Shown here: piece by piece, positions 21,710 to 64,000 of the stretch
Layout: each line of letters opens with the position of its first letter
How positions within the stretch are numbered: position 1 is the stretch's first letter
Assembly (NCBI RefSeq): GCF_964355755.1
Contig: NC_092672.1
Location: 25,116,437 to 25,180,436, forward strand
Length of the DNA stretch: 64,000 nt
DNA from: Antedon mediterranea
Taxonomy: Eukaryota > Animalia > Echinodermata
Reading direction: 5' to 3'
The notes under the pieces: generated by a model
Told to the model about the DNA's origin: nothing
Seen by the model: only the letters and a program-made list of their open reading frames with translations
Databases searched by the model: none
Position numbers and translations under genes: made by a program

Positions 21710-22084
21710 GTTTGTTGATAGTTGACCTATTGTAATCAAATTCTATAAAAAATTAGTAAAGGATTCTAACTTAAATAACTGTACATTGTGAAGCTCATTC
21801 TGCCGTGGAACAGTAATCGAAAAAGATAAAAATCAAAGCTATACACTAGTAGAGCAAGCTTTCCTATATGATTAAAACTATTTGACGAAAAGGCATATTT
21901 CAAACACATTAAAGGAAAAGTTAAGCACACAAAAAATGGCAAAATTACATGTTTTTGCATTGTTATTTTGTGAACAATGGAATAGCCCGTCGCCTGTGTG
22001 AGATATCTTTTGTGTCCACCTGACATTTTTTTTTTGTAATGTTTTTGTTTGTTTTTTTTTTTAAAAGACAAATACACTTAAATA

Positions 22085-22834
22085 CTATCGTCGAGTCATG
22101 TTTCTGTGCGTTCTTCCTCCTCCTCCTCCTCCTCCTCCTCCTCCTCTTCCGGTAGAACGTCTCTCGTCCGACACGTTAAGAAGACTCGAGTATTCGTAAT
22201 CGTTTTCATCATCCATCGCTGTAGAATTTTTTGAATGCACGGTACTGGTGGAGCGCCAATGATGATAAACGCCGTATATCATATGGCATACAGACGCTAC
22301 GACGGTGAGTATGAGTAGAACGCGGTCGGTGGTTGGCGTGAATGAAGAGCTGCAGAAAGGTTCGTTCATGTATTGCGTTGTCAAGTAACAGTACGGTATA
22401 CTGTACGCCAAAAGGCCAAGCAATACGGCAGCGATAACTGGTACGGTGTGCAGCACCATGCGTTCCCATACGGCCGGTTGTTTGTATCTGATCAAATGTT
22501 TCTCCAACGTGAAACGAGTCATGAGATAAAGAAAGTTTACGATGATCGTAAACACATCTGCTCCAACGGCGTACAAAAGTGGACGACTGACAAACACAAA
22601 ATCAATCTGACCTGGATGTCGTTCAACTCGTTCACTTTCGTTCACAAGAAATATGGCAGAAATCAACACGCCCAACATGTAAAACAGTTTCTGAAGATGC
22701 AACACAAAATGATCGTGCCATGCTCGTATACCTTTCAGAGAGTATACCTCATGCATGGCATCGGTCAAAACGCTTGGAATCTCGGCCAATGTATTTCCAA
22801 ACGAACGAAGGCTAATTTCGTCTCCGTACCCCAT
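22085..22834 (-). CDS. Viral multi-pass (~4 TM) membrane protein
   Basis: 249-aa ATG ORF with four hydrophobic segments and a hydrophilic C-tail. Confidence 0.7.
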   Translation of the reverse strand: MGYGDEISLRSFGNTLAEIPSVLTDAMHEVYSLKGIRAWHDHFVLHLQKLFYMLGVLISAIFLVNESERVERHPGQIDFVFVSRPLLYAVGADVFTIIVNFLYLMTRFTLEKHLIRYKQPAVWERMVLHTVPVIAAVLLGLLAYSIPYCYLTTQYMNEPFCSSSFTPTTDRVLLILTVVASVCHMIYGVYHHWRSTSTVHSKNSTAMDDENDYEYSSLLNVSDERRSTGRGGGGGGGGGGRTHRNMTRR

Positions 22835-22997
22835 CGTTTGATCTATTTCTTCTCTATAATTAACATGGAATAAAAAAACAAAAACAAAACACTAATGGTT
22901 TTCAACAAACACACGCACGCACACACAAATTCTATTTATTTTATTTTATTTTTTTTTATTATAAATGTACAACGCATGAAAAATAAAAGCATAAAGC

Positions 22998-23789
22998 ATG
23001 TTAAGTAATCGGCGTGTAAGGATAAGCAGAGGCGCTGGTCGCTCGTATACTGTTGACGGTAAGAAACTGATTTCGGTAACAAAACAGATTTGCAACAGAC
23101 TGTACGTTGACAAACGATGGAAAATAAAGCGAGCGCGTCACATTGGGTCAGCTTCGCTTTCCAGTGAGAATGCCATGGAAGTCGGTCGTCAGATGGACGC
23201 TCAAGTTTGTTGCATGGCCAACGAGGAAGTGAATAAAGAGTTGCAAAAGTTAGACTTGGAGTTTATGAAGGCGCAGTGTGCTGTCACCAACGCCACCGTA
23301 GATAACGATGGTGATGCGTCTGTGGCAATCATAGATCTTGTGATGCAGAATCGTACGAGTGGAGATGCGGTGGTGGTTGAGTTTAAAAACACGTCCATGA
23401 CCGTTTCCCAGCTGATAAAAGAACGTGATCTTGCTCCTCGAAAACGTAGTGTCGGCTTCAAACCATGTCTTTTGGATAGAGCAAAGATTCAGGCACAATT
23501 GGGCGCTTTGTTTATGGCCAACACGTACGCTTTATCCACACGTCCATCGGCAGTCGTCTTGATTCGATGCAAAGGCGGTCAGATGCACAGTGAATGCTAC
23601 GAGGATTTCGACGAGAAAGAATTTCAATGGATCGCAGGATACAAAAGGTATAATTTCCTAAGGTCTATATCGCTTTCTAAGACCCGTTTTGATGAGTTGA
23701 TCGTCCGTTCCACGACCTGTGGGCAGACAGGTTGTGGGATCGACGAGCACCATGCCTTCATCAAATCTAGCCGTGGAAACGTCCAATAG
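22998..23789 (+). CDS. Viral PD-(D/E)xK nuclease (RecB/Cas4/UL24-like fold)
   Basis: IIDLVM..AVVVEFKNT core followed by a QAQLG motif; TATA-like tattataaa upstream. Confidence 0.7.
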   Translation: MLSNRRVRISRGAGRSYTVDGKKLISVTKQICNRLYVDKRWKIKRARHIGSASLSSENAMEVGRQMDAQVCCMANEEVNKELQKLDLEFMKAQCAVTNATVDNDGDASVAIIDLVMQNRTSGDAVVVEFKNTSMTVSQLIKERDLAPRKRSVGFKPCLLDRAKIQAQLGALFMANTYALSTRPSAVVLIRCKGGQMHSECYEDFDEKEFQWIAGYKRYNFLRSISLSKTRFDELIVRSTTCGQTGCGIDEHHAFIKSSRGNVQ

Positions 23790-25006
23790 GTTACGAAACG
23801 AAGACGAACTGTGTTCGTGTTCTCCGTAAAATCCCTTGTTGACAGACTTGAAGGCGCACGGCTCAAATTGTGAACTGTCGTAATACTGTCGACCTTGCAT
23901 TGCAACGTTACTGTCTTCCTGTAAACCGTGATGACTGATGGGTTTCATGAACACGTCCACGTCGGCCTTGTACTGTGTCGGTGGATTTCTGGTGGATAGA
24001 AACGTGGTGTGAACACCTGTCGTTCTGCTGGTGTCGTTCATCCACAACGGATGATGAAGACCGAGTGTTATGTGCGCCTCTGACGCTCCGACCGTGGCGT
24101 ATGGATTGGTGGTGAACTTGTTTGTGATTTCGTCGAGTAGATCCAGAGACTGGTTGGAATTACCGTCGCCGACAGACGCTCGACCGTTCAACTGCATTAT
24201 GTCAGTAGACTCTGGATTGAACGAGGACGGAATGGGAACGGCTACAAAATCTCCGTGTCCTTGTCTTGTGTGTGTCTGTTTAAAATTCATTATCGAACTT
24301 CCCATGCCGCGCATGTAGCCTATTCCCGCTAGATTGTTTTGAACGCGTGTATTGTCGATTGGACTAGTGTCCACGTACGTCATTTCGATGCGTGACGTCG
24401 TCTTGTAGGAACAGGCGTTCGTTTCGATCGTGCCGATTTTTCCGTTACCCAAAAACATGTATCGATAATTAGGTCCCGAACGGCACATGATGGCGCTGCA
24501 CGTTTTCTGTATGGGCATTCGAAAGAGTAAAAAGGTTGTGTTCGGAAACACATTTGCCTCTGTCAACATCTTGGTGGTGGTGGGATTCTGCAACATTGAC
24601 AGAAACAGCAACGTGCTTGCTTTTACGCCGTTTGTCAGCGGCATTGAAACCACCGTTTCAACTCGATGCGAATAGTTTCTGTTCACAAACAACTCGCGTG
24701 CCGTTCTCGGGCAATCGGTCGAAAAATACGGAAAATGTGTCGTGACATCTTTCGCTTCATTCACACAGTTTGGAGTGGTGGTGGTGAAAAAAGTGCTCGT
24801 TCCATCATTGCCAATCAGTCTACAGTTGACGTTGGTGTGATCGGATAAAAAGTGACAAAACGTCACGTTCTCTTCGTGCACTTTCGGTTTCCAATTCGTT
24901 TCGGTGACGGCGTAGATTCGTGGCGACAATAATCTGAGTACCACACGATCAAAGAGAATCTCTTTTACGCGACTTAAATGAATCCTATCGTCATCGTCAT
25001 CACCAT

Positions 25007-25047
<41 letters not shown>

Positions 25048-26933
25048 TTTCTTCGGCATGAAACTTGCGCGGCTTTGGAGAAAAACCAAGAATGCGTGTA
25101 GTTTGGACATTTCTTTGTCAACGACATAATCATCTCGTGCAGTCGGTCAGTGATGGAAAGCGCACTTTCGATGGCAATGCACGTCTCCAATATGCGTTTA
25201 TCTTCTTTGGCTTGAGTTTGGAAAATGTCATGAATGCGCGTGAGATATCGATGTCTAACGAAATGCGTCAATCCATCGTTTTTTTCAACGTCGTGTTTTA
25301 GCGTTTCATCGATTGTTAGCGGATCTTCGTCCATTTTCCTCAATGATAAGCACGTTTGCGCGTCCCATTTCAACGCCAAACAGTTGCGCAGATACTGAAA
25401 GCCACATTCGTAGAGTTTATCAAATTTATCTTCGGACGAGAAAAACTTTGCCATCAACGTCATGCCGGCTGTCACGTCACCACCTTCAACCGGTGATTCG
25501 GGAAGCTCACTGTGTCCGTACGTGATGGCCGGCATAAACTTTTTCTCGATCGGATTGTAGAAAACCTTCCGACTGGGTCGAAGCAGACACGATCGATTAC
25601 TCAGATTCTGTTCCTGCAGACAGTCTCGATCAAACATTGCCGCCGTCATCTGGTTTCGGACGCGACACAGTGCGGGCGTATCGGTGAACATGCGTTGGTA
25701 TCGAGATGTTTGATAGGTTTCGGGTGAATAGTATCCACTTCGTTCCATTACCTCACACAGTCGAATGGTACCGTCTATGCCCTTGTCTAGATCGGTGACT
25801 CGAATCTCGTTCCACGGAACGTTCGTGATGCGTTCAAAGTCCGGGGGTCTTGATCGACCGCGGCTTAACGGGATCAGTCCCGAGAGGACGTAACTCTTGA
25901 AACTTGCCGTCGTTTCGGAGAGGTTACTTCGACAGCCGTCGTCGTCGATGGAAGCATTTGGCATTGACATGACATATCGTTCGGAACCGTTGACGAGCAT
26001 CGTTTTGTTCGGAGCTGGTGCCTGACATTCGGCACCCGTCAACACTTTGATGTCCGATTCGTCGAGTTCTTTTTGATCTTTCGTGCAACGATAGAAGACT
26101 TGTCGTGTAGGGCGATGAGTGGCATTTTTCAAAGGCAATTCACTCATCAGCGCCGGATGTACGATGATGGTGTCGGGTGGTGTGCACATGGTAGACGTGT
26201 TTCCGAATCTCAACGACTTGTCCAGATCGATGAAGGTGGCCAGTGGACCGGTTCGTCGAAGATTGAAAGACATGAATTCGTCCTTGTCCTGTCGAAAACG
26301 CTTGTAAAACATGTCCGATTTGCTCATTCGATCGTTCTGAACGTTACACATTTCCGCAAACGTTATGGTTGGCGCCATCATCATGCTACTGAACATGTCA
26401 TGTTTTTGTGTTACATCCATTGAAGCGCTCAGTTGTCGTTCTTTTAGCATAAACAGCTTGTGTAGGGCCTCGTCGGTGCTGCGCTGTATCGCTTCGGCCG
26501 AAATGACTATTGCACCTCCTCTCATGTTGCCGCTGTACTGTCTACAGCTGGTTCTGGTACGCAGCGCCGACACGTCCGATGCTGCGGTGCATCGATCCAA
26601 CACCACGGCCTCTGCCACTTTTGTCGTTATACTGAACGTGGACAATCCCCTGTATATGACTCGCGGACATAGCCATAGCGAATGATCGTTTGGATCTTCG
26701 GTGCACATGGAATTCATCAAAATTCTCGTTTTCAATCGTAAATCCTTCATCAAACATACATCTCGGTCAGTCACGGCCGCTCCTCTGTCCGAGTATCCAA
26801 CATAGTCAGGATGACCGCTGATGGCTCGCATCTCATCGATCGGGTACAGATTGTCATTGTTGACCACATCTCTGAGATCTACGCAAGCACGACCGAGAAA
26901 CGGTGCGATCGTGTACTTTGTGTCCATCATCAT
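23658..26933 (-). CDS. Candidate HK97-fold major capsid protein (~1090 aa)
   Basis: Size; position in a cluster with triplex- and protease-like genes; N-terminal R.G.AI...E...(helix)..QLSAS...T segment, PPDTIIVHP, and C-terminal QGRQ..VNKGFYG motif, as recalled for herpes/mirusvirus-type MCP floor domains. Confidence 0.65.
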
Positions 26934-27001: not shown

Positions 27002-27925
27002 TTAAACGTTTGTTTGCAATATTATTCGGCCAGATTGCCAAGGTTTCGTGTCTCCGCACGCGAATCCTAACACGGCCATGCCAAACTTGCTCGTTGCAAT
27101 GTCTCCAACACGTAACATATGACCCATCATATCGGCAAGATCATCTTTCGATTGATCGTTGGTGAAAACTTCGGCAACGTCTTCGCCCAAGTAACCGTTT
27201 TCCGGCCAATGTGCATCATCAGGAATCAGCCTATTTTTTTGAAACTTGTTAACATGTTTACAGATTGCAATAACAGACATTCTGGCCATCTCAAACTGTG
27301 CGTTGTTTGCTGCCTCTGCTGTACCTTTGTTCAGTGCCATGTATCTGAGCATACTGTCAATTCGCGACGAATCCGATGACGGATTTAGACCGTACGTGAC
27401 CCATTTTAATGTTCTATATCTGGCCATGTGCTCGTCGCATTCACTCTGCGTTGGATATCGAACGCAAACTATTTGTCCGTCGAGTATTGTGCGAGAGCCG
27501 GTGTTGATATACTTGCAGCCGGTAGATTGAGTGATAACGGAAAAGAGTTTATTGGACGGCCAGTCTGTAAGCTCTGTACCGGCGACTCCCAGTACCATGT
27601 ATTTCTTCATGTCACTCTCCTTAATCAGACGCTGTCTTTCCGCATCGTCTACGTCTTTGTGATGTGGCGTTTCCATGCCGTTCGGACCCGGAACGAATCC
27701 AGTTTGATTATATGTCAAACTGTATATTCCCAGTAATACCTGTCCGGATTGAATCAATGTATTGTCCGATGGAGGATATAGTTTTCCACGTACGTCGTTC
27801 GAGCCCCTTTCAAAGTTGGCACTCAGATACGCTTGATCGACATAGAATGCTCGATTAGGTCCTTCGAGCGACGGTTCTTTGATACTTTCCATCGTCTTCA
27901 TCATCATCATCATCATCAACATCAT
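27002..27925 (-). CDS. Candidate capsid triplex subunit (beta-tulip/decoration fold)
   Basis: ~307 aa, co-oriented directly upstream of the MCP; GQVLL..VLGVA..FSVITQ..INTG..I.DGQIV..P and terminal VLGFA..GRIIL pattern. Confidence 0.5.
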   Translation of the reverse strand: MMLMMMMMMKTMESIKEPSLEGPNRAFYVDQAYLSANFERGSNDVRGKLYPPSDNTLIQSGQVLLGIYSLTYNQTGFVPGPNGMETPHHKDVDDAERQRLIKESDMKKYMVLGVAGTELTDWPSNKLFSVITQSTGCKYINTGSRTILDGQIVCVRYPTQSECDEHMARYRTLKWVTYGLNPSSDSSRIDSMLRYMALNKGTAEAANNAQFEMARMSVIAICKHVNKFQKNRLIPDDAHWPENGYLGEDVAEVFTNDQSKDDLADMMGHMLRVGDIATSKFGMAVLGFACGDTKPWQSGRIILQTNV

Positions 27926-30627: not shown

Positions 30628-31504
30628 TTATATCTCGTTTGATAAATAATACACTCTATCGGTCGGTATGCCGTAATATTTAATGCTATGATAGTAGTGA
30701 ACGGATACTATGGGCTTCATCGGTTGTTTGAATGCAACATTAACCATTCTACCGACAAACGCTAAACTAGACTTGTCTTTGACGACTGCCGTTACGTTTA
30801 AATGATGATGATGATGATGATGATGATTAGAGGAGATGCGAATAACCCGATGATCGTGGTACACGTGTGATTCGATGTTGACGTTACATTCGTCAACAAG
30901 CAATCGCATTTGCTCGCCATTGATTTTCCATTCAACTTTGGCTGTACTTGGTACACCGATGAGATACAGGATGTTTGACGTACCTGTGACGTTCCATTGT
31001 TCGCTGTAGGTGAGTAGCTGTACACTCGATATGTTCTCGATGGAAAAGCGCGATGGCATATTGTACGAAATGATATCAATATGGTCAACAGTATGCCATA
31101 ATACAGGCAATTTATATGCGCACAATTCAGTGGCGACAAAGGTCGGTGCATTGTCTTGTTTATGCAATTTTAATTCTTTTAAAATGGTAAGATTTTTAGC
31201 GGAGAAGATTACTTGAAGAAACAAATAATCGGTCGTGACATCGTAAAATTCTTGATAGTTTGTGTTTACGCGGACCGTAACCATTCTGCCTCGAGCGCAA
31301 TGTCTAATCGTTAGTAAGTTATCGTTTACGAGTACTTTGTCATTTTCTTGTGTTGTAAAGTATTTTACAGTTAGATTGTACAGTTTTGCAATGACTGACT
31401 CGTAGTAAAAATTGAAAGTTACTGACTCTCCAAGTACCGGATGTAGACTAGACATTACAATCGAGCCTATCGTTGATGCGTCCCGATTGCATGGATGAGT
31501 CGCG

Positions 31505-31535
<31 letters not shown>

Positions 31536-33057
31536 AATCGAGAATATGTGACGGATGATCGCATCTGTCTTTAATGTTCACTACACACATGCCGTCATCG
31601 TAACACGTTCCCGGTCGATTGAAATTCACGTTTCTTTTGTTGAAATAATAACAGTAACGCAAACTGTTTGAATCCACCTGCTTCGGACCTGTATTCTGCC
31701 ACGGATTCGAGTCTTTACACACGTCGACCAAATGATCGATGAAAAGAGATGGGTTAGATGGTTCGTTTAAAACCTGCACGTGTGCCCTACCCCAATATGT
31801 TTTGTTAACAATACACTCGTAACCTCCCGTATCCCAGCGATTGGCATCGAAAATTGTCAGTGTATGCTCGTGATAGTTGTTACAAGACGCCTCTATCGCT
31901 CTTGAATGTTCAATTTGCTTTCCGTTCCGTATCCACAGAACATTATTTGAGGACGTGGACGTGGTGCAACGTAAAAGTATCATTCCTTTCGGTTTTACAA
32001 TTTGTATCGCGGGTGACAGTATCGCCGGCATTCTCTTAATGGTACCAAATTCTTCTGTCAATGTCGTTGCACACACGTTTCCGATAGTCAACGACGACGA
32101 CGACGACGGTTTCACCTGTTCTTCTATTGTGTTTACCACTCGAACGTGTACAGATATCGATTCATAATCACTGGATCCTATGCACGAGTACAAGCCTTGA
32201 TCGCGAACCGTGATCTGTTCCAGTAGAAGCGAATGTGTTTTGTTTGTTCTACACTGTTCACCTCTCATGGTACCGTGACGTTTCGGATCGGGTATCATCC
32301 ACGTCACTAAAGTTTCTCTCGGAAACTGACATAGTAGATTCAACGTTTGTCCGATGGCCACGGTTTCGGCGTCCACCGTTATCGTTGCAATTCGAGCCGG
32401 TACCTCCCTTCTACACGGATCATCCGGAACGATGCAACACACAGAATATTTTGTTTCTAAAAGTGCACATAGGCTGTCGTATGGCCATGATCGAACCTTC
32501 CTCACTGATATCGTATCGTATCCACAGATGCGTACTTGATCAATAATTACATTTCTGTCTGTAGACGCTATTGCCAGTGAATAACACGTCTCGAACATAG
32601 AAGAAGACGGTTCGGACGTAACCCTTTGGCTATTGCGTAACACTTGAATGCTTGAAAAGTTTCGAGAACCGGACGAAATGGTGATGGTGGCGACTTCTCG
32701 AGGTTGCATGATGTACGCGTCGACGACTTGTACGACAGCATCTTTTTGCGTTCGTGTCCACGTTCTACGCGATCGATTGTATTCATCGATGTAACACGAG
32801 TACGTTCCAGTGGCATCCTTTGTCATGGCCATTACCTTCAGCATACTTGATGTCATGTCCAACGTGATGTGGGCGATAACCATACCCACGTCACGCTTCG
32901 GTAGATTCCATCGTATGTGAGAAGCTCTTCTGCTGTCCGTTGTGCATCTCAATTCGAACGACGTGTATGGTCTTGCAACCACGTACTCTCTGTCCATTGT
33001 CAACGTACCGCGTGTAGTAGCACTACAAAGTAGAGTAATCAGGCAAAGTCGAAACAT
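30628..33057 (-). CDS. Viral secreted/surface multi-immunoglobulin-domain glycoprotein
   Basis: Signal peptide MFRLCLITLLCSATTRG; three clear Ig domains (FELRC..IRW..ATGTYSC; LNLLC..VTW..DQGLYSC; ILLRC..VLWIRNG..DTGGYEC); many NxS/T sites; no C-terminal TM seen. Confidence 0.85.
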
Positions 33058-37872: not shown

Positions 37873-37911
<39 letters not shown>

Positions 37912-43656: not shown

Positions 43657-44007
43657 GCACATTTCGACGACCAACATTCCCTTCTCACATAACCTGAACG
43701 CAAGGTATATTGCAATTTCTGTCTGGATGAACGATGACATCGACCTGACATTTGGCAGAAACTTTCATTGGTGTCAAAGAAGAAACGATTGCCTCGTCTC
43801 GTCGTTCGCGTTATTTCCATGCCGGTGACACGTTGCACGTCGTCCACAATATTTCTCAACTGCTCTTCGGACAAAACTTCTTCGGTGGTGGTTGTTGTTG
43901 TTGATACATCTTTCTTTGGCTTTTTTACCAAATGTGACAGATCGTATGGTGTTTGACAAACGCTGTCGGAGCAGTAGTGCGCCAATGCTCGACGAACATC
44001 GACGCCT

Positions 44008-44042
<35 letters not shown>

Positions 44043-52870: not shown

Positions 52871-52901
<31 letters not shown>

Positions 52902-52915
52902 AGCTGAAAAGTTGA
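51044..52915 (+). CDS. Viral BTB-BACK-Kelch-like protein (putative Cullin-3 adaptor)
   Basis: VDALLTFM..CLSIAEKIGC (BTB end), ESYLWHLVHTWI..R..LVKLIR (BACK), LILSGG..FETFDLDSGAW..SHATC (degenerate Kelch). Confidence 0.65.
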
Positions 52916-54391
52916 CGTGAAATCATGTTCAGAAACGTCGAGCATTTCGGCGAGCATACGCCGTCCACAGCCTGATCGAAAGTAGGGCAGAAGAGGCATC
53001 ATCATTTCAATGTCCTCAAACGCTCTCTTTGTCCACGGTTTCAGCGGTACGCCGTATTCTTTCATCCAATCGTCGAGCAGTGAACTGACGATGAAATCTT
53101 GCCACGATGCCGAACAATCGCTGACAATCTGCTGTAACATTTTCGCTGGAAGCGCAGACGTTGTTCCGTGGCGTGCAACGTTGCCGGCGCCTCCCCCTGA
53201 CACCGGTATTGATCCCAATAGAACGTTTCTGACGAGAACATCGAGAGAGGCGGATGCCTGTTCGAGTCCCGATTGAGTTTTTACATCCAATCTGGACGCC
53301 AACATACTTCTCTCATCACCAACATCCTCGGTCGTCATAACCGGTAACAAGTGTCGTTCACGTCTTTTATCGAAAAGAAAACTCTTTCTCAACTTTTCCT
53401 TCTCCTTTCTGCATCTGACTAGATCGCCGATAAGTTTCTCTTTTTCGTCTACTGTGCTCGTTTTGTTAACGTCGTCCAGTAGAGAAGTTGCCATTGGAAC
53501 GCCCATGGTTCTGGCTTTGATCAGATTCGCTACGGCTGCTCCGGTAACCAAGTCTTCTGTGTTGTTGTTGTTGTTGTTGTTGTTGTCATCTTCGCCATCA
53601 TTCATGCCGTTAGATTTCGATTGAATTTTAGGACCGGTCACAATAATGTTCGTGGCCGAATTGCGCACGGCCGCCAAATGATATTCGGTCAAGAGACGTA
53701 CGTTTTCACAGCTGGCGAGCAGATTTGATAGAGCGCTGTGCATTCTACCGTCAACGCCTGGCCGATGAACGACAACGACACGCAAACGAGATTGGCTTTT
53801 AATCGATCTAGCATACAGATCACCTTCGTCGTCTCTGAATACTAAACATTCGTCCATGTCGACGGCAACCGGACGACCATCGACACACGTCGTCACCACA
53901 AATCCATAGATCCATATACATCGAATGGTGTCGCGTATGAAACGTTCGATGGATTCCTTGTACGTTTGACAAAAGACGGCAACTGTACATGAAGTCGGCG
54001 ATGGTATTTCGACGGTTGTGCACTGCGTTCTAACGATCGCTTCGGCACTAGCACGCATTCCATGTTCAAACATTGATTTTACCGAGATGGATGCACACAG
54101 TCTATTGAGTATACACATGCACATTGGCAACTGATCGAACGTTCGACGCAATAGTTTGGCGTGCTCTTCGTCGAGTAGATAAAACGTTTTGTTCTTAAAC
54201 TCTTCATTGACGGCCGTCATGCATGTTTTGCGTTTTTCAAACACATGTCGTGCATAGTCTTTTGCGTCGAGGAACATGTTAGCGTCTCGAGTCTCTGAAT
54301 CAATGGATGCTCTAATGCTGTCAACAGTCTTTTTGGTCACGTTACTATCGACCGTAGTCAGGGGCATTACTTTCCCGCCCAGAAGATTCAT
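52862..54391 (-). CDS. Candidate portal protein
   Basis: ~510 aa; FIRDTIRCIWIYGFVV..GRP (wing-like), PGVDGRMHSALSNLL followed by a long helix and NIIVT (stem/clip-like); lies near the terminase. Confidence 0.5.
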
Positions 54392-55266: not shown

Positions 55267-55909
55267 TTATTGATAAACTTTATTAGAAAGAAAGCAAGTC
55301 CACGCCAACCACAGAATAAACGTCATGGCAAGATCATCACGAACACCAGCCGTCTTTCCACTTATCGTGATTTTACCGTCGGATTTTACGAGTCTTCTGA
55401 AGTTACACAGTTGATCCTGTAAAATGCTCATCTGTCCGTCATCGATGTCTTGTGCAAACACGACTCGATCGTTCTCCAGCAACATTTGTGACAAATGTAC
55501 CAGATTTCCTTTGTCTCTTGTCCAAATTCCGACACACCTACGCCCGTCCGTTCGACGTCTCTCCTTTTCGAAAGATATGTCTACTGACGTACCGGCAAAA
55601 CGATCCGTTACTTGCTTTGCCATGCGAGCGGCGTGTGCGTGCGATGTATTACGTTCTACGTACACACGAACTGGCATGAATGTCAACTGATTGTACGTAG
55701 CCAAGGTCCTGTTCACCGTGTCTATTATTAGTTGGGCGTGCATGTCCAGTAAAGAATCCATACGATCCATATGTGCAACGTGGTGTTTCAAAGCAAGTAT
55801 CTGCGTAGTAAAATAAAGGTTATTACGATTAATAAATGCTTTTCTTTTCTTTTTTTCGTCTCAACGTATAGTAGGGAGAGAGAGAGAGAGTGAGAGAGAG
55901 AAACTGTAT

Positions 55910-55991
<82 letters not shown>

Positions 55992-57265
55992 AAAAGAAAA
56001 GGAAAAAGAGAATCAATTGGTAGCGTAATGTTGACGAATGCATTTCATCCCGTGTATTGCAATCTGGAATTTCTACAAGAACGACAAAGAATGTTTTTCG
56101 AATGGAAGAGCGCTATAGATAAGGCGGCTATAACGGACGAGATTAACGCATCCGCATTACCTATTGTCGAAAAGATTGTGAGAACGTGTGGTAGAGAGAC
56201 AGTGTTGTTGGTGGAAATGAATGATGCAACCGTACAAGATATGGTCGAACAACGACAAAAACAATCGATTCTGGCTTACACAAGAACGGCAATGATGGCC
56301 GCCACGCAATTTGAATTGGGTCGACAACGAGAGATATCGCAATTGAACACGTTTCTCTTACAGGCAATAGAAATGTTCAATTTGACATTTTTACCAGATG
56401 TAGAACGTGAGTACAGAGCATCAACGCCAACCGATAAACATTGGATAATAGATAGCATTCGCAATATCATCGTACAGCTGTTGACCAACACGTACGATCA
56501 ACCAATGTGGCATTCCGTCGGATGCGGATCACCGTTGGCCGTGGCCGTTGCAACGATTCGAAATCGAGTACAGAATACCAGTTGTTGTGGTGGTCTGTCT
56601 ACGATTCGGGCCGGGCTCCCAGGGCACGCTACGTACGCGCTTCGAAGAATTATGGAGAGAAGAGGCGCCGCGTGCAAAATACCATCCGTTCGACTTACCT
56701 GCCTAACGTCCGACGTCGTTAACACACCGGCAACCAATCCAATGCCGGACACGTCCGACGGAGTTGGATCGACGGCAATCAACAGACCCGATGAGAAGCC
56801 AGATCTTGTAGTGGATCTTCTTTCGTCTGAAAACAGTTTGGTTAGCAATTTACCGGAAAAAAGTCGTTCGGCGAGTGAAGACGGTGAACAGACGGGAATG
56901 CCCATACACTCTAGTTCATAGCTTCCGGTGGCTATGAGGTTCATCATCTGCTGAACGACATTACCGTCGTTTCCATCAATGTGTTCCGGTACCAAATGTC
57001 GCCTGTGAGCGCACACTGTTCGCGTTCCTTTCTCGAAGCACGCATCGCACAGGTACGACTGAGTAATGTATTTAACCAGTGCACGTCCATCGTGTTTAAT
57101 ATTCACAAACTCTTGCGACCAGTGATCACTCGAAGTCATCGACGATGTTAAAAGAACCGACACGTTCTTAGGTTGAAAGATTGGCAGAGTTGATAGCATA
57201 GCCGTTTGCTTTATCCACGGATACTCGTCCATCCATCCCATATCACAACCGGTTCCTCTTGAAGC
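55267..57265 (-). CDS. Herpes-type terminase large subunit (UL15/UL89/ORF29-like), last two exons: 56699-57265 and 55267-55800; the Walker A exon lies upstream, probably beyond the window
   Basis: ttttcag|ASRGTGCDMGWMDE (Walker B)..LTSS (motif III)..YLC..C..C.H..P..SYELECMG..IAVDP..SGIG..VRQ|gtaagt, then cgcag|ILALKH..VYVERN..QLCNF..ISGK..RDDLAMT. Colinear with HSV UL15 exon 2; both exons are phase 0. Confidence 0.93.
55913..55986. repeat. (TA)n microsatellite, preceded by (GA)n, in the terminase intron
   Basis: Pure TA run of about 70 bp. Confidence 0.95.
56028..56921 (+). CDS. Viral hypothetical protein nested antisense in the last terminase intron, overlapping the preceding exon
   Basis: ~297-aa ATG ORF; its last 223 nt overlap terminase exon 56699-57265. 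Confidence 0.65.
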   Translation: MLTNAFHPVYCNLEFLQERQRMFFEWKSAIDKAAITDEINASALPIVEKIVRTCGRETVLLVEMNDATVQDMVEQRQKQSILAYTRTAMMAATQFELGRQREISQLNTFLLQAIEMFNLTFLPDVEREYRASTPTDKHWIIDSIRNIIVQLLTNTYDQPMWHSVGCGSPLAVAVATIRNRVQNTSCCGGLSTIRAGLPGHATYALRRIMERRGAACKIPSVRLTCLTSDVVNTPATNPMPDTSDGVGSTAINRPDEKPDLVVDLLSSENSLVSNLPEKSRSASEDGEQTGMPIHSSS

Positions 57266-57283: not shown

Positions 57284-58180
57284 ATGACAACAGCTGCTCT
57301 GAACGCGTATCTACAAGCAAATCGTTTCGACATATATCACGTGGACGAACTTCACGAATGTGTACCGAATAGATGTACGTTCGTGCAACCCATGCAAGAC
57401 GGTGAGAATTTCGTGTGCATGTCGTCGCTACGCACGCACACCTGTACATTGTCGGCAGACTGCGTCATGGAAAATTTAGATCACAACACTCGAAGATGCG
57501 CATTGACTGGTAAAGAATTCTATACAGACGAATATGAACCGATTGTCGTTGGACTCGATACGCCGCTATACGACAACATGCAAGAGGTTAGAAAGACGAC
57601 AACGACGCGAAATAAACACGATAAAATGTTTCGTTTCGGCACAACCGTACGTCAGGTTCTGGAACGATTGTACGATCGAAAGAAACGATGCAAGTACAAC
57701 AACGTAAATTTCTTTGAACACAAGGCCTGTGAAATGATTTTGGAGAACATGGGCAAACAGAACATCGTGTCCGTAATCAGATACACCTTTCTAAAACACG
57801 TATCAGCAAACAGATTACCGGATACAGCGCTTCCAGAGGAAAACATGCTGGACGACGTGGTAGACTTTATTTTTGACGTTATGTCTGTGTTTATGTACTA
57901 CTCGACGTTACAATATTCCAAGAAAGACTTTCTACTCAGCAACGGTCACGAAACGGTCGTGTACTTACTAAAGAGCACGTTGAATGGTATTCGTTCGGCG
58001 GAAAGCGTCATTCTAAAACCACGCTTTCCTCAACTGAAACCCATGCCAGGTGATCGGTTGATGTTTCCGATATTTCAGGTGTCGACCTCTCAACTGACAG
58101 CGTGCTCGAGGTTGTTACAGAGCATGGCGAATGAAAAGATTTGTCGTTATCATTTGGCAAAATTAAATCGAGAATCTTAG
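57284..58180 (+). CDS. Candidate UL92/ORF31-like late-gene transcription factor nested in the terminase intron
   Basis: HEC..C.F...FVC....HTC....C.....RRCALTG Cys/His pattern, as in the HCMV UL92 and KSHV ORF31 N-termini. Confidence 0.6.
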   Translation: MTTAALNAYLQANRFDIYHVDELHECVPNRCTFVQPMQDGENFVCMSSLRTHTCTLSADCVMENLDHNTRRCALTGKEFYTDEYEPIVVGLDTPLYDNMQEVRKTTTTRNKHDKMFRFGTTVRQVLERLYDRKKRCKYNNVNFFEHKACEMILENMGKQNIVSVIRYTFLKHVSANRLPDTALPEENMLDDVVDFIFDVMSVFMYYSTLQYSKKDFLLSNGHETVVYLLKSTLNGIRSAESVILKPRFPQLKPMPGDRLMFPIFQVSTSQLTACSRLLQSMANEKICRYHLAKLNRES

Positions 58181-58454: not shown

Positions 58455-61400
58455 ATGGTAAATTCGAAGACAATCATCATCATCATCATGTATACATCAT
58501 CACAGACCGAAACGTTGATGGACACGACGGCTGTTAGACAGAGGCCGACAAAGAGAAAAGGACGGGACGATAATAAAGAGGTTGGCAAACAGTCGAAAAA
58601 AATGACGCCGTATCTTGGACGAGTTCTCGACGAACTCGCAGACCCGACGCTCACAACAACGACGCTCATGAGAATGGTATCGACTGCTTACAGATCCGGC
58701 TACCCTCCAGATGGATCCATGCTGGGTCTAAAAGCGCAGCTACTTCGAATGGACGGCTTTTCAAAACAGTTTTCAAACGCGTTCGTTTCTGGTCGCATAG
58801 TTGTTGTCGACGCAAAGAATCTTAAAAGCTTGTACGAAAGTCTGTGTGAAATAATCAAAATGATTGAAATCATCACAGAAATCAACAAACATGCTGACAT
58901 GAAAGAGAGAACGCGTAAATTGTGCGACAGTTTGTTTCTCGGCGGTAGCTTTCTAAATTCGAAACAAGTTCGGGTCTCAATCGTCATCAAAGACGGTAAT
59001 CTAATACAACAAAAGATACACTTTGCAAAACATCTCAAGACAATGACTGCCGTTCCAGGTATACATTCACAGTCGCCTGTAATAGGCGGTGGCGGCGCAG
59101 GAAAAGAGAAATCGTTTCTACAGCTAGGAAAGTTTCAGGCCGGCAATAGACTGACAATGAAAGATTTTTTTCTGAAACACTACACATCTACGCAAGGTAA
59201 CAATTCCAGCGATCGTGATGCTCTCTTCAACGAAACCGGATTAAGTAAAGACGATTTCGAGAGATTGTTGAAAGCGTGTACGCACATTCAAAACGTGGAA
59301 ATTGGAACCACGTTTCGATTGATGAAATACGTGTGCGCGCTGTTCGACAAAAGACCGAATCTGTACATGATTTTCGCTTGCCTCGTACTACATCGCATAG
59401 TTCATCACATCGGCGATGCTACACTGCTCGCCAGAGCCGACATGTGGAATCTCGTGTTGGGACAGAGTGAAGAGATCACAAACAGTTGGAACTTTGAAAG
59501 AATCGACGCGGAAATCACGGCAGCTGAGAGTAAATGGAACGCGGCACATGCTCCGTGGTTGACCGTTGACTCGGCGGAACGTCCCACCGTCGAATGGATC
59601 AGAAAGTTGGCAAAAAAGATACAAGAGGACTTTGCGCCATACGAAAGAAATGCTTTGGACATTGACTTTGACCATTTGTTTGGTGCGCTCGTGTCGTACA
59701 TTAAAAAACACGAATTTCTCAAGATTCGTCTAAGAGATCATGCACTCGTTACTGGAACGATCGACGAACTTAAACCGTTTCAATGTGAACGACCTCCGTT
59801 CGGAACGCCCACTGCACAAGATGACATGCCATGGAGAGACTGTTGCCATTACGAGGCGAACGTATGTGCTATTCTACTCAACGCTCTTTGCAATATACCG
59901 GTTAGATCTCCTGAATCAACGCGCAAGATTTCACTCGACACGGCCACCGAAGGCATGGCAATGGTCGAACAAAGTCGGTTCGAAATAACGCAACTCAGTT
60001 ACCAACATCTGCTAAGTTTGGAGGCTAAAGCGCGTGAACGTGCCGCCAACATCACTACTACCGATTCTGAATCTCGTATGCCGGTGATGAACACAGAATC
60101 TGCTGATAATATGTCGGTGGTGCAGCAGCAGGTGAACACCGAAACTGTTGACGACGAGGCGCGTACTACAAACGCATCAGATACGCTTTCTGTTCTCGAA
60201 CCTCTGGTCATCATGGAAGGTATGCCGGCAAATACCACCCAAGACACACTACTTTCTGTGCTTGAATCTGGTACGACGCCGGCGGTGATGAACACCGAAA
60301 CTGCTGACGCGCTTACTACTCACACCGATGATGCAATTTCTGTGCTCGAATCTATTGACATAGCAAGCATGCCGGCAAACACCACCCAAGACACACTTTC
60401 TGTGCTTGAATCGGGTACGACGCCGGCGGTGATGAACACCGAAACGCGTACACACACCGATGATACAATTTCTGTGCTCGAATCTATTGCCATAGCAAGC
60501 ATGCCGGTGAACACCGCAATTGTACACGAAGAAGAAGAAGAAGAAGAAAAAGAAGGTGACGGTGATGATGATTTACCTAGCATCGGTCAACTGCTCGCTC
60601 CTTACGTGAACACGGCCAACAGCATCTTACCTTCAACAAACGACGATTTGCCCATCTTGGACGAAGACACCGTTCAAAGATTGCGTGAAATCTCGGACGA
60701 TGTGAACGCTCACAATAGTACAATGCACGTAAAACTCTACGATATTGAAGATTGGATATCATCTCAGCCCGATTCTAATGCCGAATCCCAATCGCAGATT
60801 GAAGTCATGCAATGGACAAAGGCAAAAGCCGAAGAAGAACGACGGACGGCTTTGAACACGCTCGAGACTCAACGAGTAGAACACGAAGAGTTCAAGAAGA
60901 CCATGGCCACCAGGAATGCAGAGTCGACGAGAGAAAATGAAAAAAAGACGCGAGTGAGCGACGCAAAAATTAAAGAGTTGGAAACGAAACTGGACAAGAC
61001 CGAAGGCGAACTGCGAAACAGTAAACGTTTGGTGGACGAAATGAAGCAACAACTTCACGACACCGAAATGCAAAATGTCGACGAGTCAGACACTCTAAAA
61101 GCCTTGCTTAACAAAAAGACGGACGAAGCACGTGCACATGAATTGATTTTGAAGCGCAAGCAATCCGAATTGATATCGTCAAAAGAACACGTTGACGAGC
61201 AGACGAGTCGTCGCATCGAAGCGCTCACAAACGAAGTTGGTGAATTGCGCGTGCTGAACAGAAGATTGGACACGGCCAACACGCTTTCGGAGACAACGTA
61301 CAGGCAGCGAATTCAACAGTTGGAAACTGATTTGCAAACGTACGAAGAAAAGAGCAGATTGTATCAGTCGAGCGTACAAAAAAATGAACAGTTGATGAGC

Positions 61401-63503
61401 CGACATGTTGACGATTTGGCATCGCAACTTGATGCCGAAAAAATAAACTCTGCTTCGTTAAAACATGATGCAGAGAACATGTTAAAATCTCGAGAGCAGG
61501 CGTATTTGACCGATCTGAGAAAATTGAACAATGAGCTGCAAAACGAGAAGAAAAACGTACAGAAACTCGGTCGTGACTTGCAACAGACCACCGATTCGGC
61601 GCATCTGCAAAGAGAACAACTCAACAATAAACTGATGAACGCAAACACGACGTTCACCATCAAGCTGGACGAAATGAGAAGGGAGATTGAAGAACAGGAC
61701 AAGAGGCAAAACTCGGTTCAACACGAAAAGAATCTAGATGCGGTTCAACACGAAAAGAATCTAGATGATTTGAAACAAACTCTTGTCGAGACCGAACAGA
61801 AGGTAGCGCAACTGAAACGAGATGGCGACGAAAAAATAGATGAATGGAAGAAACGTGTTGAAGAAGTGAAGATGGAGCGTGACAAAGCAGCTCAACATCG
61901 TGTCCTGTTGGAAAGACAGGTTCGAGAGTTGACGAGCAAAGCTGCAGAGGACAATTTCACTCGAAAACGTTTAGAAGAGCGACTGAAAAAGTCAATCGAG
62001 ACACACGCCGAGTACGTGTCGGAAGCTAAACAGAGCACGAAGAAAGAGACTGAAAAGAAGATGCTCGACATGTTGACACAGGCCGAGAAACAGCACACGC
62101 GGGAACGTGACGAGGAACGTGATCGACTCGAAAAACAACTGAAATCTGAAGTAACTAAACTAGGACAAAAACACGACGCAGAGATGAAACGTGTCGCGAA
62201 AGAACACAGCACTGCTATACAGCGACAGTTGACGTCGGCAGCGAACGCGTCGAGCAATCACAAAACAGAATTGAAGTCGACAATACGTGATCTAGAAGAA
62301 GCGCGAAAAGCTCGTGACTCGTTGTGTACGCAAAACGCTAAACTTCAAGAGAAGTTTACTGCCAAGGAAAAAAGTTTAGCTGAAACACATCGGTTATCCG
62401 ACGACAAGAATACAGAAATATCCTCTCTTGCCGCTCAGGTAATTATTTTAAAAAATCACAGCTTGACTGCACAAAAGCGCATCGAAAGTCTCGAAAAGGA
62501 ATTGGAACATTCGCAGCGAAAAGTATCCGAATCCTATCTGAAACTGTCTGAATTCATAAAGAATCAAAGCGACGGAGGCGGTGGAGGAGGAGGAGATGGT
62601 GGATCTGATGTGTTACATGAAAGAATGAAAGATATCGAAGCGTCATTGGAGCAAGAAAAGCGCCAAAATCTATATAAAGATGGACAGATTGCACATTTGA
62701 AGTCTGATGTTAAATTTTTAACTAGTAAAGTTGAAACTGCAAACAGCGAACGAGAACGACAGGTTGCAAACTTACAACGGAAACTTTTCAATAAAAAACG
62801 TACGTCGCATTCGTTATATACGTTACATCATGATGAAGATGAAGAGGATAAAGTGGAGGAGGAAGAGATATACGATGAAGCTGAGTACAATCATGACTAT
62901 TACGGTGATGAACATGATGATGATAATGAGCATAATGGTGGCAATGAGGATGATGATGAATACAAAATACAATTTGTTGTCGATTACAGTCCAAGTAATA
63001 CGTCCTATCATCAGTTATTCGGAACCGGAGAGTTTACTTTCAACGAAGTGATTAATCAAGCAAGACATTACATCAATTCCACCGATGATGAAGATGTATC
63101 AACAGTAGAAGCAGCAGCAAAATTGACCGACAGATGTGGCTCGACATATTTTGCGCCTATGGTCGTACGCAAAGGCAATGTAACCGAAGGCGATAGAACT
63201 GTAATGAAAGTGATTTCGTTCATGGGAAAAATACCGGGCGTGACATTGGTAAAACCGAGTCAAAGTAGCGTTCCCATTTGTTTTCTTGCGTCAGACAATT
63301 CGTGCAAGTATCGCCGTAGAGGTGATGCACGATACGTAATTTTTGGCAAGGATATGCGTATAGATTGGTCGGAGAAAGATTGGTATGTACAATTGGTCGG
63401 ACGTATTCTCGAAAACAATCTTAGACACAATCCAAAGGTAATCACTGCAGCACCATGTTTGACCCAACAGACGATCCAGTTACCAGCTCCGATAACTTTC
63501 TAA
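58455..63503 (+). CDS. Very large viral protein (1682 aa): helical N-domain, Thr/acidic repeat linker, long coiled coil, C-terminal globular domain; tegument/scaffold-like
   Basis: Uninterrupted ORF; heptad-rich region about aa 790-1440; internal DNA duplications at ~60220-60515 and 61713-61768. Confidence 0.85.
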   Translation: MVNSKTIIIIIMYTSSQTETLMDTTAVRQRPTKRKGRDDNKEVGKQSKKMTPYLGRVLDELADPTLTTTTLMRMVSTAYRSGYPPDGSMLGLKAQLLRMDGFSKQFSNAFVSGRIVVVDAKNLKSLYESLCEIIKMIEIITEINKHADMKERTRKLCDSLFLGGSFLNSKQVRVSIVIKDGNLIQQKIHFAKHLKTMTAVPGIHSQSPVIGGGGAGKEKSFLQLGKFQAGNRLTMKDFFLKHYTSTQGNNSSDRDALFNETGLSKDDFERLLKACTHIQNVEIGTTFRLMKYVCALFDKRPNLYMIFACLVLHRIVHHIGDATLLARADMWNLVLGQSEEITNSWNFERIDAEITAAESKWNAAHAPWLTVDSAERPTVEWIRKLAKKIQEDFAPYERNALDIDFDHLFGALVSYIKKHEFLKIRLRDHALVTGTIDELKPFQCERPPFGTPTAQDDMPWRDCCHYEANVCAILLNALCNIPVRSPESTRKISLDTATEGMAMVEQSRFEITQLSYQHLLSLEAKARERAANITTTDSESRMPVMNTESADNMSVVQQQVNTETVDDEARTTNASDTLSVLEPLVIMEGMPANTTQDTLLSVLESGTTPAVMNTETADALTTHTDDAISVLESIDIASMPANTTQDTLSVLESGTTPAVMNTETRTHTDDTISVLESIAIASMPVNTAIVHEEEEEEEKEGDGDDDLPSIGQLLAPYVNTANSILPSTNDDLPILDEDTVQRLREISDDVNAHNSTMHVKLYDIEDWISSQPDSNAESQSQIEVMQWTKAKAEEERRTALNTLETQRVEHEEFKKTMATRNAESTRENEKKTRVSDAKIKELETKLDKTEGELRNSKRLVDEMKQQLHDTEMQNVDESDTLKALLNKKTDEARAHELILKRKQSELISSKEHVDEQTSRRIEALTNEVGELRVLNRRLDTANTLSETTYRQRIQQLETDLQTYEEKSRLYQSSVQKNEQLMSRHVDDLASQLDAEKINSASLKHDAENMLKSREQAYLTDLRKLNNELQNEKKNVQKLGRDLQQTTDSAHLQREQLNNKLMNANTTFTIKLDEMRREIEEQDKRQNSVQHEKNLDAVQHEKNLDDLKQTLVETEQKVAQLKRDGDEKIDEWKKRVEEVKMERDKAAQHRVLLERQVRELTSKAAEDNFTRKRLEERLKKSIETHAEYVSEAKQSTKKETEKKMLDMLTQAEKQHTRERDEERDRLEKQLKSEVTKLGQKHDAEMKRVAKEHSTAIQRQLTSAANASSNHKTELKSTIRDLEEARKARDSLCTQNAKLQEKFTAKEKSLAETHRLSDDKNTEISSLAAQVIILKNHSLTAQKRIESLEKELEHSQRKVSESYLKLSEFIKNQSDGGGGGGGDGGSDVLHERMKDIEASLEQEKRQNLYKDGQIAHLKSDVKFLTSKVETANSERERQVANLQRKLFNKKRTSHSLYTLHHDEDEEDKVEEEEIYDEAEYNHDYYGDEHDDDNEHNGGNEDDDEYKIQFVVDYSPSNTSYHQLFGTGEFTFNEVINQARHYINSTDDEDVSTVEAAAKLTDRCGSTYFAPMVVRKGNVTEGDRTVMKVISFMGKIPGVTLVKPSQSSVPICFLASDNSCKYRRRGDARYVIFGKDMRIDWSEKDWYVQLVGRILENNLRHNPKVITAAPCLTQQTIQLPAPITF

Positions 63504-63613
63504 TCCTAATCAATCTTCTCTTGACCAATCTAATAGCGAATACTCGTCGACATGAGCAGAAGAAGGAGAAGAAGGAAGAGGAGAGACAACTGATTACCTC
63601 CATATTTTAGATT

Positions 63614-64000
63614 ATGTCGTTTGATTTATGGAAAAGTTTAGAGTCACGCGTTGAACGTAGATGGATAGAATGGTCTCATCATCATCATCATCATCATCAC
63701 GACGACGACGACGAGGAAGAAGAAGAAGAAGACAACGCTTACTTGAAAGAATTGTTGAAGGAATTCAAAGGAAATTTGGAGAGTATATGTACCAAAAAAG
63801 GCGATGAACAAGATGTTCTCTATTACGCACGATGCATTGCGCTCATCGAACGTCTCTTGTTCGACACAACCACGATAACGTCCGAGTGTTGTACAATGGC
63901 CGACATGGACAGTATATTGAAACGCAATGTTCTCTTTGCCTGGACCAATGTGCACTCTTTCAAAATTCTCGAAAGATTATCAACAATTTGGAGATTTGTG
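63614..64000 (+). CDS. Viral hypothetical protein, truncated by the window edge
   Basis: Frame MSFDLWKSLESRVERRWIEWS(H)nDDDDEEEEEEDNAYLKELL.. stays open to base 64000; absent from the ORF track because it has no stop. Confidence 0.6.
   Translation, partial: MSFDLWKSLESRVERRWIEWSHHHHHHHHDDDDEEEEEEDNAYLKELLKEFKGNLESICTKKGDEQDVLYYARCIALIERLLFDTTTITSECCTMADMDSILKRNVLFAWTNVHSFKILERLSTIWRFV

Follow-up and report, generated by a model that had tools for sequence, protein, structure and literature searches.

A block of viral genes in the feather star Antedon mediterranea, a crinoid, is likely a recent chromosomal insertion of a virus from an undescribed lineage of Herpesvirales, abutting intron 4 of a host OGFOD2-like gene, with no gap, at 21981/21982. 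The block was found in a window of 64,000 nucleotides, to which all coordinates refer, and runs from 21982 to 64000, where it is still open at the right window edge. The insertion itself is probably real. The lineage and the host class are probably new; the kind of element is already known.

The two sides of the join differ in composition and coding density. The host part (1-21981) has a GC content of 34.4% and an observed/expected (o/e) CpG ratio of 0.50, against 43.8% and 1.43 in the viral part, and the host motif TAGGCCTA occurs 12 times in the host part and never in the viral part. The compositional flip reported in a preliminary description stands for the CpG-rich viral side, but the CpG poverty of the host is uneven, positions 16001-20000, which harbour inverted-repeat elements, having ratios of 1.11-1.25. 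The viral part is covered to 92.3% by ORFs of at least 100 aa, the host part to 1.7%; in all ten mononucleotide shuffles the cover was 1.5-4.4% and the longest ORF 156 aa. A greedy non-nested set of the viral part holds 40 ORFs, of which a few are probably spurious frames on the antisense strand, which makes the earlier count of about 35 tightly packed ORFs a fair one. The genes look intact, as had been described, and five ORFs are similar in size to full-length counterparts in relatives (the major capsid protein, MCP, at 1091 vs 1088-1130 aa; the others at 307 vs 299/308, 263 vs 231, 249 vs 266, and 312 vs 268 aa). The block is gene-dense and intact-looking, but to call it a herpesvirus-related genome of more than 42 kb is too strong: motif scans of the window detected neither a DNA polymerase B motif nor, in open frames longer than 106 aa, a Walker A motif, and no counterpart of the protease of two unnamed relatives (L001 and L002) was found in the window.

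On the host side, exons 1-4 of the OGFOD2-like gene (20137..21709, plus strand; 20137-20265, 20752-20808, 21236-21346, and 21610-21709, with GT-AG boundaries) match P0016, the 348-aa OGFOD2-like isoform X2 of Antedon mediterranea, at 43/43, 19/19, 37/37, and 33/33 residues (132/132 in total). For residues 134-348 of P0016, tblastn of the window gave no match better than E 1.7. Both the identification of the host gene as an invertebrate OGFOD2 joined to the virus within an intron, and the absence of an exon after the one ending at 21709, are borne out. OGFOD2 is multi-copy in this animal, with eight RefSeq proteins and about six gene models on a single contig, and sample X1 shows three variant types at depths near 960, 2140, and 2710. 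The cluster comprises about five near-identical copies.

Intron 4 reaches the junction as 21710..21981 (plus strand), where contigs of two independent samples match the window and then depart from it at the same base. The X8 contig tracks the window up to 21981 and then has a loose end of 255 letters; the X9 contig equals 21681-21981 with 1 differing letter, and its next 120 letters are unlike the window. Depths in the last bin are those expected for cover stopping at 21981; those of X1 (3295) and X5 (1505) are compatible with the insertion or with overlapping host contigs. The virus had first been placed as starting at 21913; this position was rejected, the host intron contigs continuing to 21981, and the junction lies 69 bases further right. 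The window contains no N, and the join is gapless. Every 11-mer in the first 30 viral bases is unique within the window. TTAA, the target at the element ends of Teratorn-like herpes-piggyBac fusions (Teratorn being an integrating herpes-transposon of the Alloherpesviridae), is absent from the bases flanking 21981/21982. Other samples (X8 and X9) do have an uninterrupted intron 4, as an empty site would, but because OGFOD2 is multi-copy in Antedon these contigs may be paralogues rather than alleles of the insertion site.

The viral sequence is not confined to one sample. Of the words from 18000-27900, a share of 0.48-0.80 occurs in seven runs, which come from samples S1-S3 and carry two organism labels; since the host fraction of that interval is 0.40, these runs must contain viral words. 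The runs with near-identical viral words bear two, probably three, different organism labels. No RNA run was among those listed with words of this interval. Sample X9 looks RNA-like, with exon bins up to 210 vs 25 in the adjoining intron, and its low word share (0.28) was therefore not counted as absence of the virus; the small shares of X10 and X11 (0.11 and 0.09) were not used as evidence. A common free or episomal infection fits the presence of viral words in several samples equally well.

The 1091-aa ORF at 23658..26933 (minus strand) is predicted to encode an MCP with a large herpesvirus-type upper (tower) domain. Taken as a whole, its structural model has low confidence (mean pLDDT 43, pTM 0.38); over residues 400-800 it is partly confident. 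The top Foldseek matches of the model in BFVD were alloherpesvirus and HHV-1 MCPs (E 4e-6 to 8e-4), with TM-scores of only 0.12-0.24 and 10-12% structural-alignment identity to the alloherpesvirus MCPs, and 28 of the 28 PDB rows listed were herpesvirus capsids. VIA aligned residues 468-796 to the upper domain of HSV-1 VP5 (1no7) with Z 15.9 and rmsd 4.5 over 285 residues, and the model to the MCPs of HHV-6B, PRV, and KSHV with Z 14.9, 14.5, and 11.2. Among 48,161 chains four rows reached Z of at least 8, all of them herpesvirus MCPs, and the next row had Z 5.7. The residues aligned to the herpes upper domain number 285-354, over a model span of about 330-400. This modelled fold, together with the terminase, supports the earlier view of a herpes-related virus; all Pfam herpes matches of the viral ORFs are below cut-off.

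Relatives of the MCP are few and unnamed. A phmmer search of 1.84 billion representatives retrieved 11 at E ≤ 0.001 (22-63% identical), and none of the 13 clusters looked up bore a name; the virus is remote from named viruses, in keeping with its description as deeply divergent. Because all of these capsid relatives are unnamed, the virus looks like a member of an undescribed family-level lineage. The MCP alignment and terminase exon 2 found no relative in viral_contigs, and the MCP profile no relevant match among PDB sequences. A quick, unrooted MCP tree of 13 rows, without named references and with P0003, P0006, P0008, P0011, and P0024 omitted, cannot place the lineage. The capsid gene order is the same in the window, L001, and L002: in each, a homologous ORF (307 aa at 27002..27925, minus strand, in the window; 31-32% identity) lies directly upstream of the MCP. 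We take it to be a candidate capsid triplex protein; it has no PDB or Pfam match, profile searches included. In L001 and L002 the protease adjoins these two genes, its best Pfam match being Herpes_ORF28 (E 4e-6 and 0.015, below cut-off), and profiles of the relatives' protease and triplex protein had no relevant match among PDB sequences. A second candidate triplex protein (328 aa, 49993..50979, minus strand; no Pfam or NCBIfam match) and a candidate portal protein (509 aa, 52862..54391, minus strand, next to the terminase on its downstream side; unmatched in Pfam, NCBIfam, and PDB sequences) are likewise presumed identities, based on position and motifs.

Canonical in-frame splice signals alone predict, on the minus strand, a terminase gene split into three or more exons whose introns harbour antisense genes. 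The middle exon (56699..57265) contains a Walker-B-like motif, a Cys/His cluster, and the start of the nuclease between a polypyrimidine-AG acceptor and a GTAAGT donor, and was scored by Atlas as a terminase large subunit (0.96-0.98, recognition 2798, Terminase_6N clusters). The last exon (55267..55800), with an in-frame AG acceptor, would encode the C-terminal part of the nuclease; its best Pfam match is the herpes family DNA_pack_C (E 0.0012, 18.3 bits, below the cut-off of 22.8). These scores fit an ATPase-nuclease terminase subunit and agree with the terminase proposed before; an exon with Walker A was not found in the window. Nested in the predicted 898-nt intron between them (55801-56698), and overlapping the preceding exon, is an antisense ORF of 297 aa (56028..56921, plus strand) with a weak Atlas lead only (0.91, recognition 1910; Phage_Mu_F on 36% of one cluster). 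The predicted first intron holds an antisense UL92/VLTF3-like late transcription factor (57284..58180, plus strand), whose best Pfam match, like that of exon 3, is a herpes-type family below threshold (Herpes_UL92, E 4e-4, 20.7 bits vs a cut-off of 21). In the Atlas, the clusters closest to exon 2 are not herpes but terminase fragments of phages or bacteria. In tblastn at E ≤ 1, neither exon matched any of 50,697 phage records. The exons had no relevant match among PDB sequences, and a word-indexed search with exon 2 among longer proteins found none, which is weak evidence. A spliced terminase with nested genes had been taken for a Herpesvirales hallmark; it is not exclusive to that order, since mirusviruses have such terminases too (PMC12768974).

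The remaining ORFs give few firm identities. The gene nearest the junction (22085..22834, minus strand, 249 aa, stop 103 bases from it), by eye a multi-pass membrane protein, has a homologue after the MCP in L002 (32%, E 2e-25), whose genome extends past this gene. Antisense to the MCP end, an ORF at 22998..23789 (plus strand) is presumably, by its motifs, a PD-(D/E)XK-type nuclease; a homologue occupies the same place in L001 (29%, E 2e-16), and Pfam gave no family match. From motifs we likewise assume an HNH-type endonuclease at 35701..36792 (plus strand; weak PHROG endonuclease match, E 0.025) and an archaeo-eukaryotic primase at 43608..44804 (minus strand; no Pfam, NCBIfam, or PDB sequence match). 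A putative FEN1/XPG-like 5'-3' nuclease lies at 39756..41255 (minus strand; Pfam XRN_N E 0.009, below cut-off; no PDB sequence match). An 809-aa protein with a signal-peptide-like start (30628..33057, minus strand) has immunoglobulin domains (Pfam Ig_3 E 4e-19, I-set E 5e-17), and the C-terminal 85 aa of a coiled-coil-rich protein of 1682 aa (58455..63503, plus strand) match a large L002 ORF (E 2e-5). A comparison of 37481-38137 with an L002 ORF lent no support to homology (E 0.23). NCBIfam and PHROGs were uninformative for the viral ORFs, the best PHROG match among 29 ORFs having E 0.0026, and no transposase or integrase family was matched in Pfam or PHROGs among the 40 ORFs.

These features suggest how the insertion may have arisen. 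The virus would replicate in the nucleus, and we lean slightly towards non-homologous repair of a chromosome break as the step that captured its genome: telomeric repeats, TTAA, and visible target homology are all lacking at the left end, which closely follows an ordinary gene, and in a relative the genome runs on beyond that gene. TRF found no telomeric arrays at the viral left end, and the 42-kb viral part contains TTAGGG 0 times and CCCTAA once. The insertion would be tolerated through OGFOD2 redundancy, given about five near-identical copies, and may be young or remain under selection, as the viral block has undepleted CpG and contains no host repeat.

Three other readings were weighed against this insertion. 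The virus could be real but free or episomal, its join to OGFOD2 an assembly chimera. A cluster of near-identical gene copies is error-prone for assemblers, none of the contigs listed spans the junction into viral sequence, and viral words appear to be present in a sample whose listed contigs lack the insertion here (X8, judging from its share of 0.40). However, the join falls at a single clean base inside an intron, without an N, shared repeat, or overlap able to seed a false join. The annotation of an intact 348-aa protein with identical exons (P0016) favours a chimera but would be expected just as well if intron 4 of that gene ran across the virus; we consider a chimera quite unlikely. Somewhat less unlikely is a self-mobile herpes-transposon or integrase-bearing provirus, Teratorn-like and with copies at several sites, in place of accidental capture. 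The intact-looking genes, the two putative endonucleases, and the spread of viral words across organism labels would suit it, as would the enrichment of mobility genes in embedded deep-branching Herpesvirales regions reported in a preprint (10.1101/2025.04.19.649669); the missing TTAA, the 40 ORFs without a transposase or integrase match, and the continuation of the L002 genome past the gene that is terminal here argue against it.

The virus could also be a mirusvirus, or belong between mirusviruses and herpesviruses, and infect an animal. Both triplex candidates resemble mirusvirus triplex motifs, a VLTF3/UL92-like factor is present, and the MCP (1091 aa) is shorter than the herpes MCPs matched in PDB (1155-1381 aa). 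Mirusvirus terminases are split near Walker B, and an intron in their nuclease region carries a gene (MING-1; PMC12768974); the terminase span of one mirusvirus genome includes a 441-nt antisense gene, as here, which would correspond to MING-1. Alloherpesvirus terminases, however, can likewise have three exons (PMC12567609), only 11 phmmer relatives were found in a metagenome-rich library, and the mirusvirus tower, compared here by its published description, is substantially smaller (PMC10132985), against 285-354 residues aligned to the herpes upper domain. No mirusvirus MCP was named in the fold matches, from libraries in which its presence is unconfirmed. A mirusvirus is, in our judgment, very unlikely. 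It is also unlikely, though less so, that a bolder reading holds in full: the first herpes-type virus of a crinoid, from an undescribed family (at least ten relatives, all unnamed) that branches off between mirusviruses and classical herpesviruses, with a herpes-size capsid tower but a gene-bearing terminase nuclease intron that is the ancestral MING-1 intron of mirusviruses, circulating in Antedon and integrating without telomeric repeats or piggyBac ends.

Invertebrate herpesviruses are known from few hosts, and the gene-dense, apparently intact crinoid example preferred here points to a missing family, for which the unnamed relatives at 22-63% capsid identity provide new markers. The combination of a herpes-size tower with a mirusvirus-like terminase architecture bears on the origin of herpesviruses from protist-infecting ancestors. 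With a junction known to the base in a tractable coastal animal, integration, inheritance, and expression can be put to the test.

Among known systems, Malacoherpesviridae were not named in the MCP fold matches, the libraries being unconfirmed as to malacoherpesvirus MCPs, and the telomeric arrays at the viral end of telomere-integrating herpesviruses (HHV-6, MDV, AciHV-3) are absent from the viral part of the window. An MCP without tower and a phage-like gene set, as in Caudoviricetes, are not seen either, although the phage-type Atlas neighbours of exon 2 point the other way. Large endogenous herpes-like elements had been described as best known from fish; in invertebrates, reports of large integrated herpes-like genomes already exist for lancelet, starfish, and ribbon worm. 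Herpes-like genomes embedded in invertebrate assemblies, one of them from an echinoderm, represent divergent lineages between Ortho- and Malacoherpesviridae, according to the preprint (10.1101/2025.04.19.649669). The Antedon virus shares that setting and may be of the same lineage; it differs in host class, Crinoidea (neither 'crinoid' nor 'Antedon' occurs in the preprint's main text), and in lacking from the window their marker, DNA polymerase. BelcheriHV-1 of the lancelet Branchiostoma belcheri is integrated, polymorphic, gene-dense, of about 45% GC, and hosted by an invertebrate deuterostome, much as the Antedon virus appears to be; 27 of its 62 ORFs match malacoherpesviruses and its flanks are repeat-rich (PMC12373286), whereas no named relative was found for the Antedon virus, whose site lies within a protein-coding gene, in an intron, and whose left junction is fixed to the base. 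Alloherpesviridae share the best MCP fold matches, a three-exon terminase as predicted here, the ORF28-type protease of the relatives, and chromosomal integration, likely in this case; unlike Teratorn and AciHV-3 (PMC12031113), the Antedon virus has an invertebrate host and a left junction without piggyBac signature or telomeric repeats. With Mirusviricota (PMC10132985; PMC12768974), it shares, by prediction, an HK97 MCP with tower, a split terminase whose nuclease region has an intron carrying a gene, and a VLTF3-like factor, but it differs in its predicted large herpes-like tower, its animal host, and core genes that appear intron-free beyond the terminase.

The two parts of the window differ in composition. 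The host part (1-21981) is AT-rich, with a GC content of 34.4% and a CpG observed/expected ratio of 0.50, and the viral part (21982-64000) is gene-dense, with values of 43.8% and 1.43, which bears out the flip to CpG-rich, ORF-packed sequence reported in the preliminary description. ORFs of at least 100 aa cover 92.3% of the viral part (n=40 non-nested ORFs) versus 1.7% of the host part; cover was 1.5-4.4% in all ten shuffles of a control. Many short trinucleotide and CA/AT microsatellites occur in the viral part, coding and intergenic, and give rise to poly-D, -S, -E and -H runs. At 46666-47933, a Cys-rich ORF on 252-nt repeats precedes a stretch of lower GC content with a 51-nt tandem array, a possible origin-like or regulatory region.

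Thirteen sequencing runs were listed, 11 with part of window 18000-27900, and the contigs of four were compared with the flanking host sequence plus a few dozen bases at the start of the viral part. One contig of run X8 (record 23) runs along the window over 21088-21981, and beyond that point 255 letters are left as a loose end. A contig of X9 (record 31), from a different sample than run X1 with the same organism label, matches 21681-21981 with one other letter, followed by 120 further letters. The last-bin depths of X8 and X9 (2.97 and 13.7) correspond to cover stopping at 21981. Since both contigs part from the window here and the depths agree, the host/virus junction is at 21981/21982. The viral block had been placed in an OGFOD2 intron from 21913 onward; the abrupt join stands, and the X8 and X9 contigs move the start to 21981/21982. 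The intron also occurs uninterrupted, in copies that could be alleles or, because the gene is multi-copy, paralogues.

The four host exons (GT-AG) were compared with both candidate proteins retrieved by exon 1. Exons 1-4 equal P0016, an OGFOD2-like protein (isoform X2) of Antedon mediterranea, a crinoid echinoderm, at 132/132 residues; P0016 residues 134-348 have no match in the window better than E 1.7. The seven OGFOD2-like proteins of the P0016 cluster and P0017, eight in all, map to one 38.96-Mb contig. Judged by isoform labels and differences, their alignment (P0016-P0023) suggests about six near-identical gene models, some truncated. In X1, the window type has a depth of 2709, a type with the P0023 substitutions 2144, and a deletion joint fitting P0017 960. 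These three read-supported types and the multiple gene models make about five copies a reasonable inference, and the variants suggest a real, recent tandem expansion.

A myosin gene lies head to head with OGFOD2 and runs away from it, with minus-strand exons in 540-13800 (e.g., 12232-12348 and 4577-4753; Pfam Myosin_head E 1e-8 and 1e-6); we take it, as a guess, to be myosin XIX. Two adjacent CpG-rich, MITE-like elements (16778-17616 and 17709-19668) have long inverted arms made of 16-nt repeats, and the latter is high-copy in 4/4 runs compared. Host intronic minisatellites are found at about 7080-7470, 7840-9540, 13990-15266 and 20898-21074, with units of roughly 58, 70, 79 and 21 nt.

Host bases make up 0.40 of the searched words (18000-27900), even sampling assumed. 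The share found is 0.78-0.80 in X1-X4 (sample S1) and 0.48-0.49 in X5-X7 (S2 and S3, of another organism label and study); as these exceed 0.40, viral words must be present in X1-X7. The share in X8 is 0.40, yet its host contig differs from the window at 28/894 letters, which by a rough estimate puts a ceiling near 0.25 on its host share, so X8 probably holds viral words as well. More than one sample thus carries this virus or one nearly identical to it, which fits an inherited element and a common infection equally.

A search of 1.84 billion representatives gave the predicted major capsid protein (MCP; 1091 aa, 23658-26933, minus strand) 11 relatives at 22-63% identity, and a profile search added two; all 13 clusters examined are unnamed. 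In BFVD, a structure model built on an alignment of 15 sequences (mean pLDDT 43) best matches the MCPs of Lake sturgeon herpesvirus (E 4e-6), ranid herpesvirus 2, cyprinid herpesvirus 1 and HHV-1. Herpesvirus MCPs also rank first in the PDB, and against 48,161 chains VIA-align gives four rows with Z of at least 8, all herpesvirus MCPs (next row 5.7), the best being the upper domain of HSV-1 VP5 (Z 15.9, rmsd 4.5, with 285 residues aligned over 468-796 of the model). Among 447 pattern matches are the related contigs L001 (38%) and L002 (33%), in which the order protease, 300-aa gene, MCP is kept and the protease has a sub-threshold match to Pfam Herpes_ORF28. A quick MCP tree, with no named reference, places the window with P0001 and P0004 within a 10-row set, three distant rows standing apart. 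The unnamed capsid proteins (P0001-P0015 and P0024; L001 10007-13375; L002 8229-11618) are 1090-1180 aa long, on contigs of 1-52 kb, and the set marks out a virus group not yet described. L001, at 56% GC, carries a BTB-BACK-Kelch gene; L002 has a GC content of 41%. A putative BACK-domain ORF in the window (51044-52915, plus strand; weak match, E 0.013) perhaps encodes a host-interaction protein of diverged BTB-Kelch type, comparable to the one in L001. A coiled-coil protein (36784-37572, minus strand), conserved at L001 20861-21679 (28%, E 2e-12), has no family match and may resemble ESCRT-III/Snf7.

The predicted terminase is encoded on the minus strand in two segments, 57265-56699 and 55800-55267, between which lies an 898-nt intron with in-frame AG/GT signals on either side. 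The former scores in the Atlas as a terminase large subunit (0.96-0.98, recognition 2798) with phage-type nearest clusters, and the latter matches herpes DNA_pack_C below cut-off (E 0.0012); a search of 50,697 phage records at E<=1 gave no match to either. The Walker A exon was not found in the window. The intron interrupts the nuclease region and contains an antisense ORF (56028-56921); a UL92-like ORF (E 4e-4), also antisense, is found upstream. Triplex, portal, primase and nuclease labels of window ORFs are candidate assignments from motifs.

Nested antisense genes in a spliced terminase had been taken as a hallmark of Herpesvirales. Published accounts describe orthoherpesvirus terminases as mainly split into two exons by an intron that holds genes (PMC6466031) and alloherpesvirus ones as having three exons (PMC12567609), and also mirusvirus terminases as trans-spliced, often with the gene MING-1 in a nuclease-region intron (PMC12768974), one having a 441-nt antisense gene inside (PMC12768974 supplement). 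The trait alone is therefore not an indication of Herpesvirales. That the virus is a mirusvirus or an intermediate lineage is unlikely. The join could instead be an assembly chimera, which we consider doubtful: among the records listed for the four runs none crosses it into viral sequence, as a chimera would predict, but the whole 64-kb window holds no N base and none of the 11-mers in the first 30 viral bases occurs elsewhere in it. A self-mobile element, a reading that overlaps an integrated herpes-type virus on taxonomy, is unlikely; TTAA is absent at the junction. Given integration, the most likely mechanism, held with modest confidence, is capture of a nucleus-replicating herpes-type genome at a chromosome break within one of the OGFOD2 copies, the redundancy of which would buffer the damage. 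A dedicated terminus is disfavoured, since an ordinary gene stops 103 bases from the left viral end and, in L002, more genome follows the homologue of that gene. The high CpG content, the full-length ORFs and the lack of the host TAGGCCTA motif (0 in the viral part versus 12 in the host part) suggest that the viral block is young or under continued selection.

In the literature searched, with subscription literature mostly outside it, no crinoid or Antedon herpesvirus was found; matches to crinoid and herpesvirus were, by title, natural-product or peptide reviews. Published work reports integration of AciHV-3 in sturgeon via telomere-like ends (PMC12031113), rare malacoherpesvirus reads (PMC11097642) and a mirusvirus screen with Metazoa excluded (PMC10827195). 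The viral part here holds no telomeric array (TTAGGG 0, CCCTAA 1). The element is of a known kind, but its family-level lineage and its host class are probably new. PMC10132985 describes phage MCPs as being without the herpes-type tower (the MCP upper domain) and the mirusvirus tower as substantially smaller than that of herpesviruses, whereas the model here matches the large herpesvirus tower.
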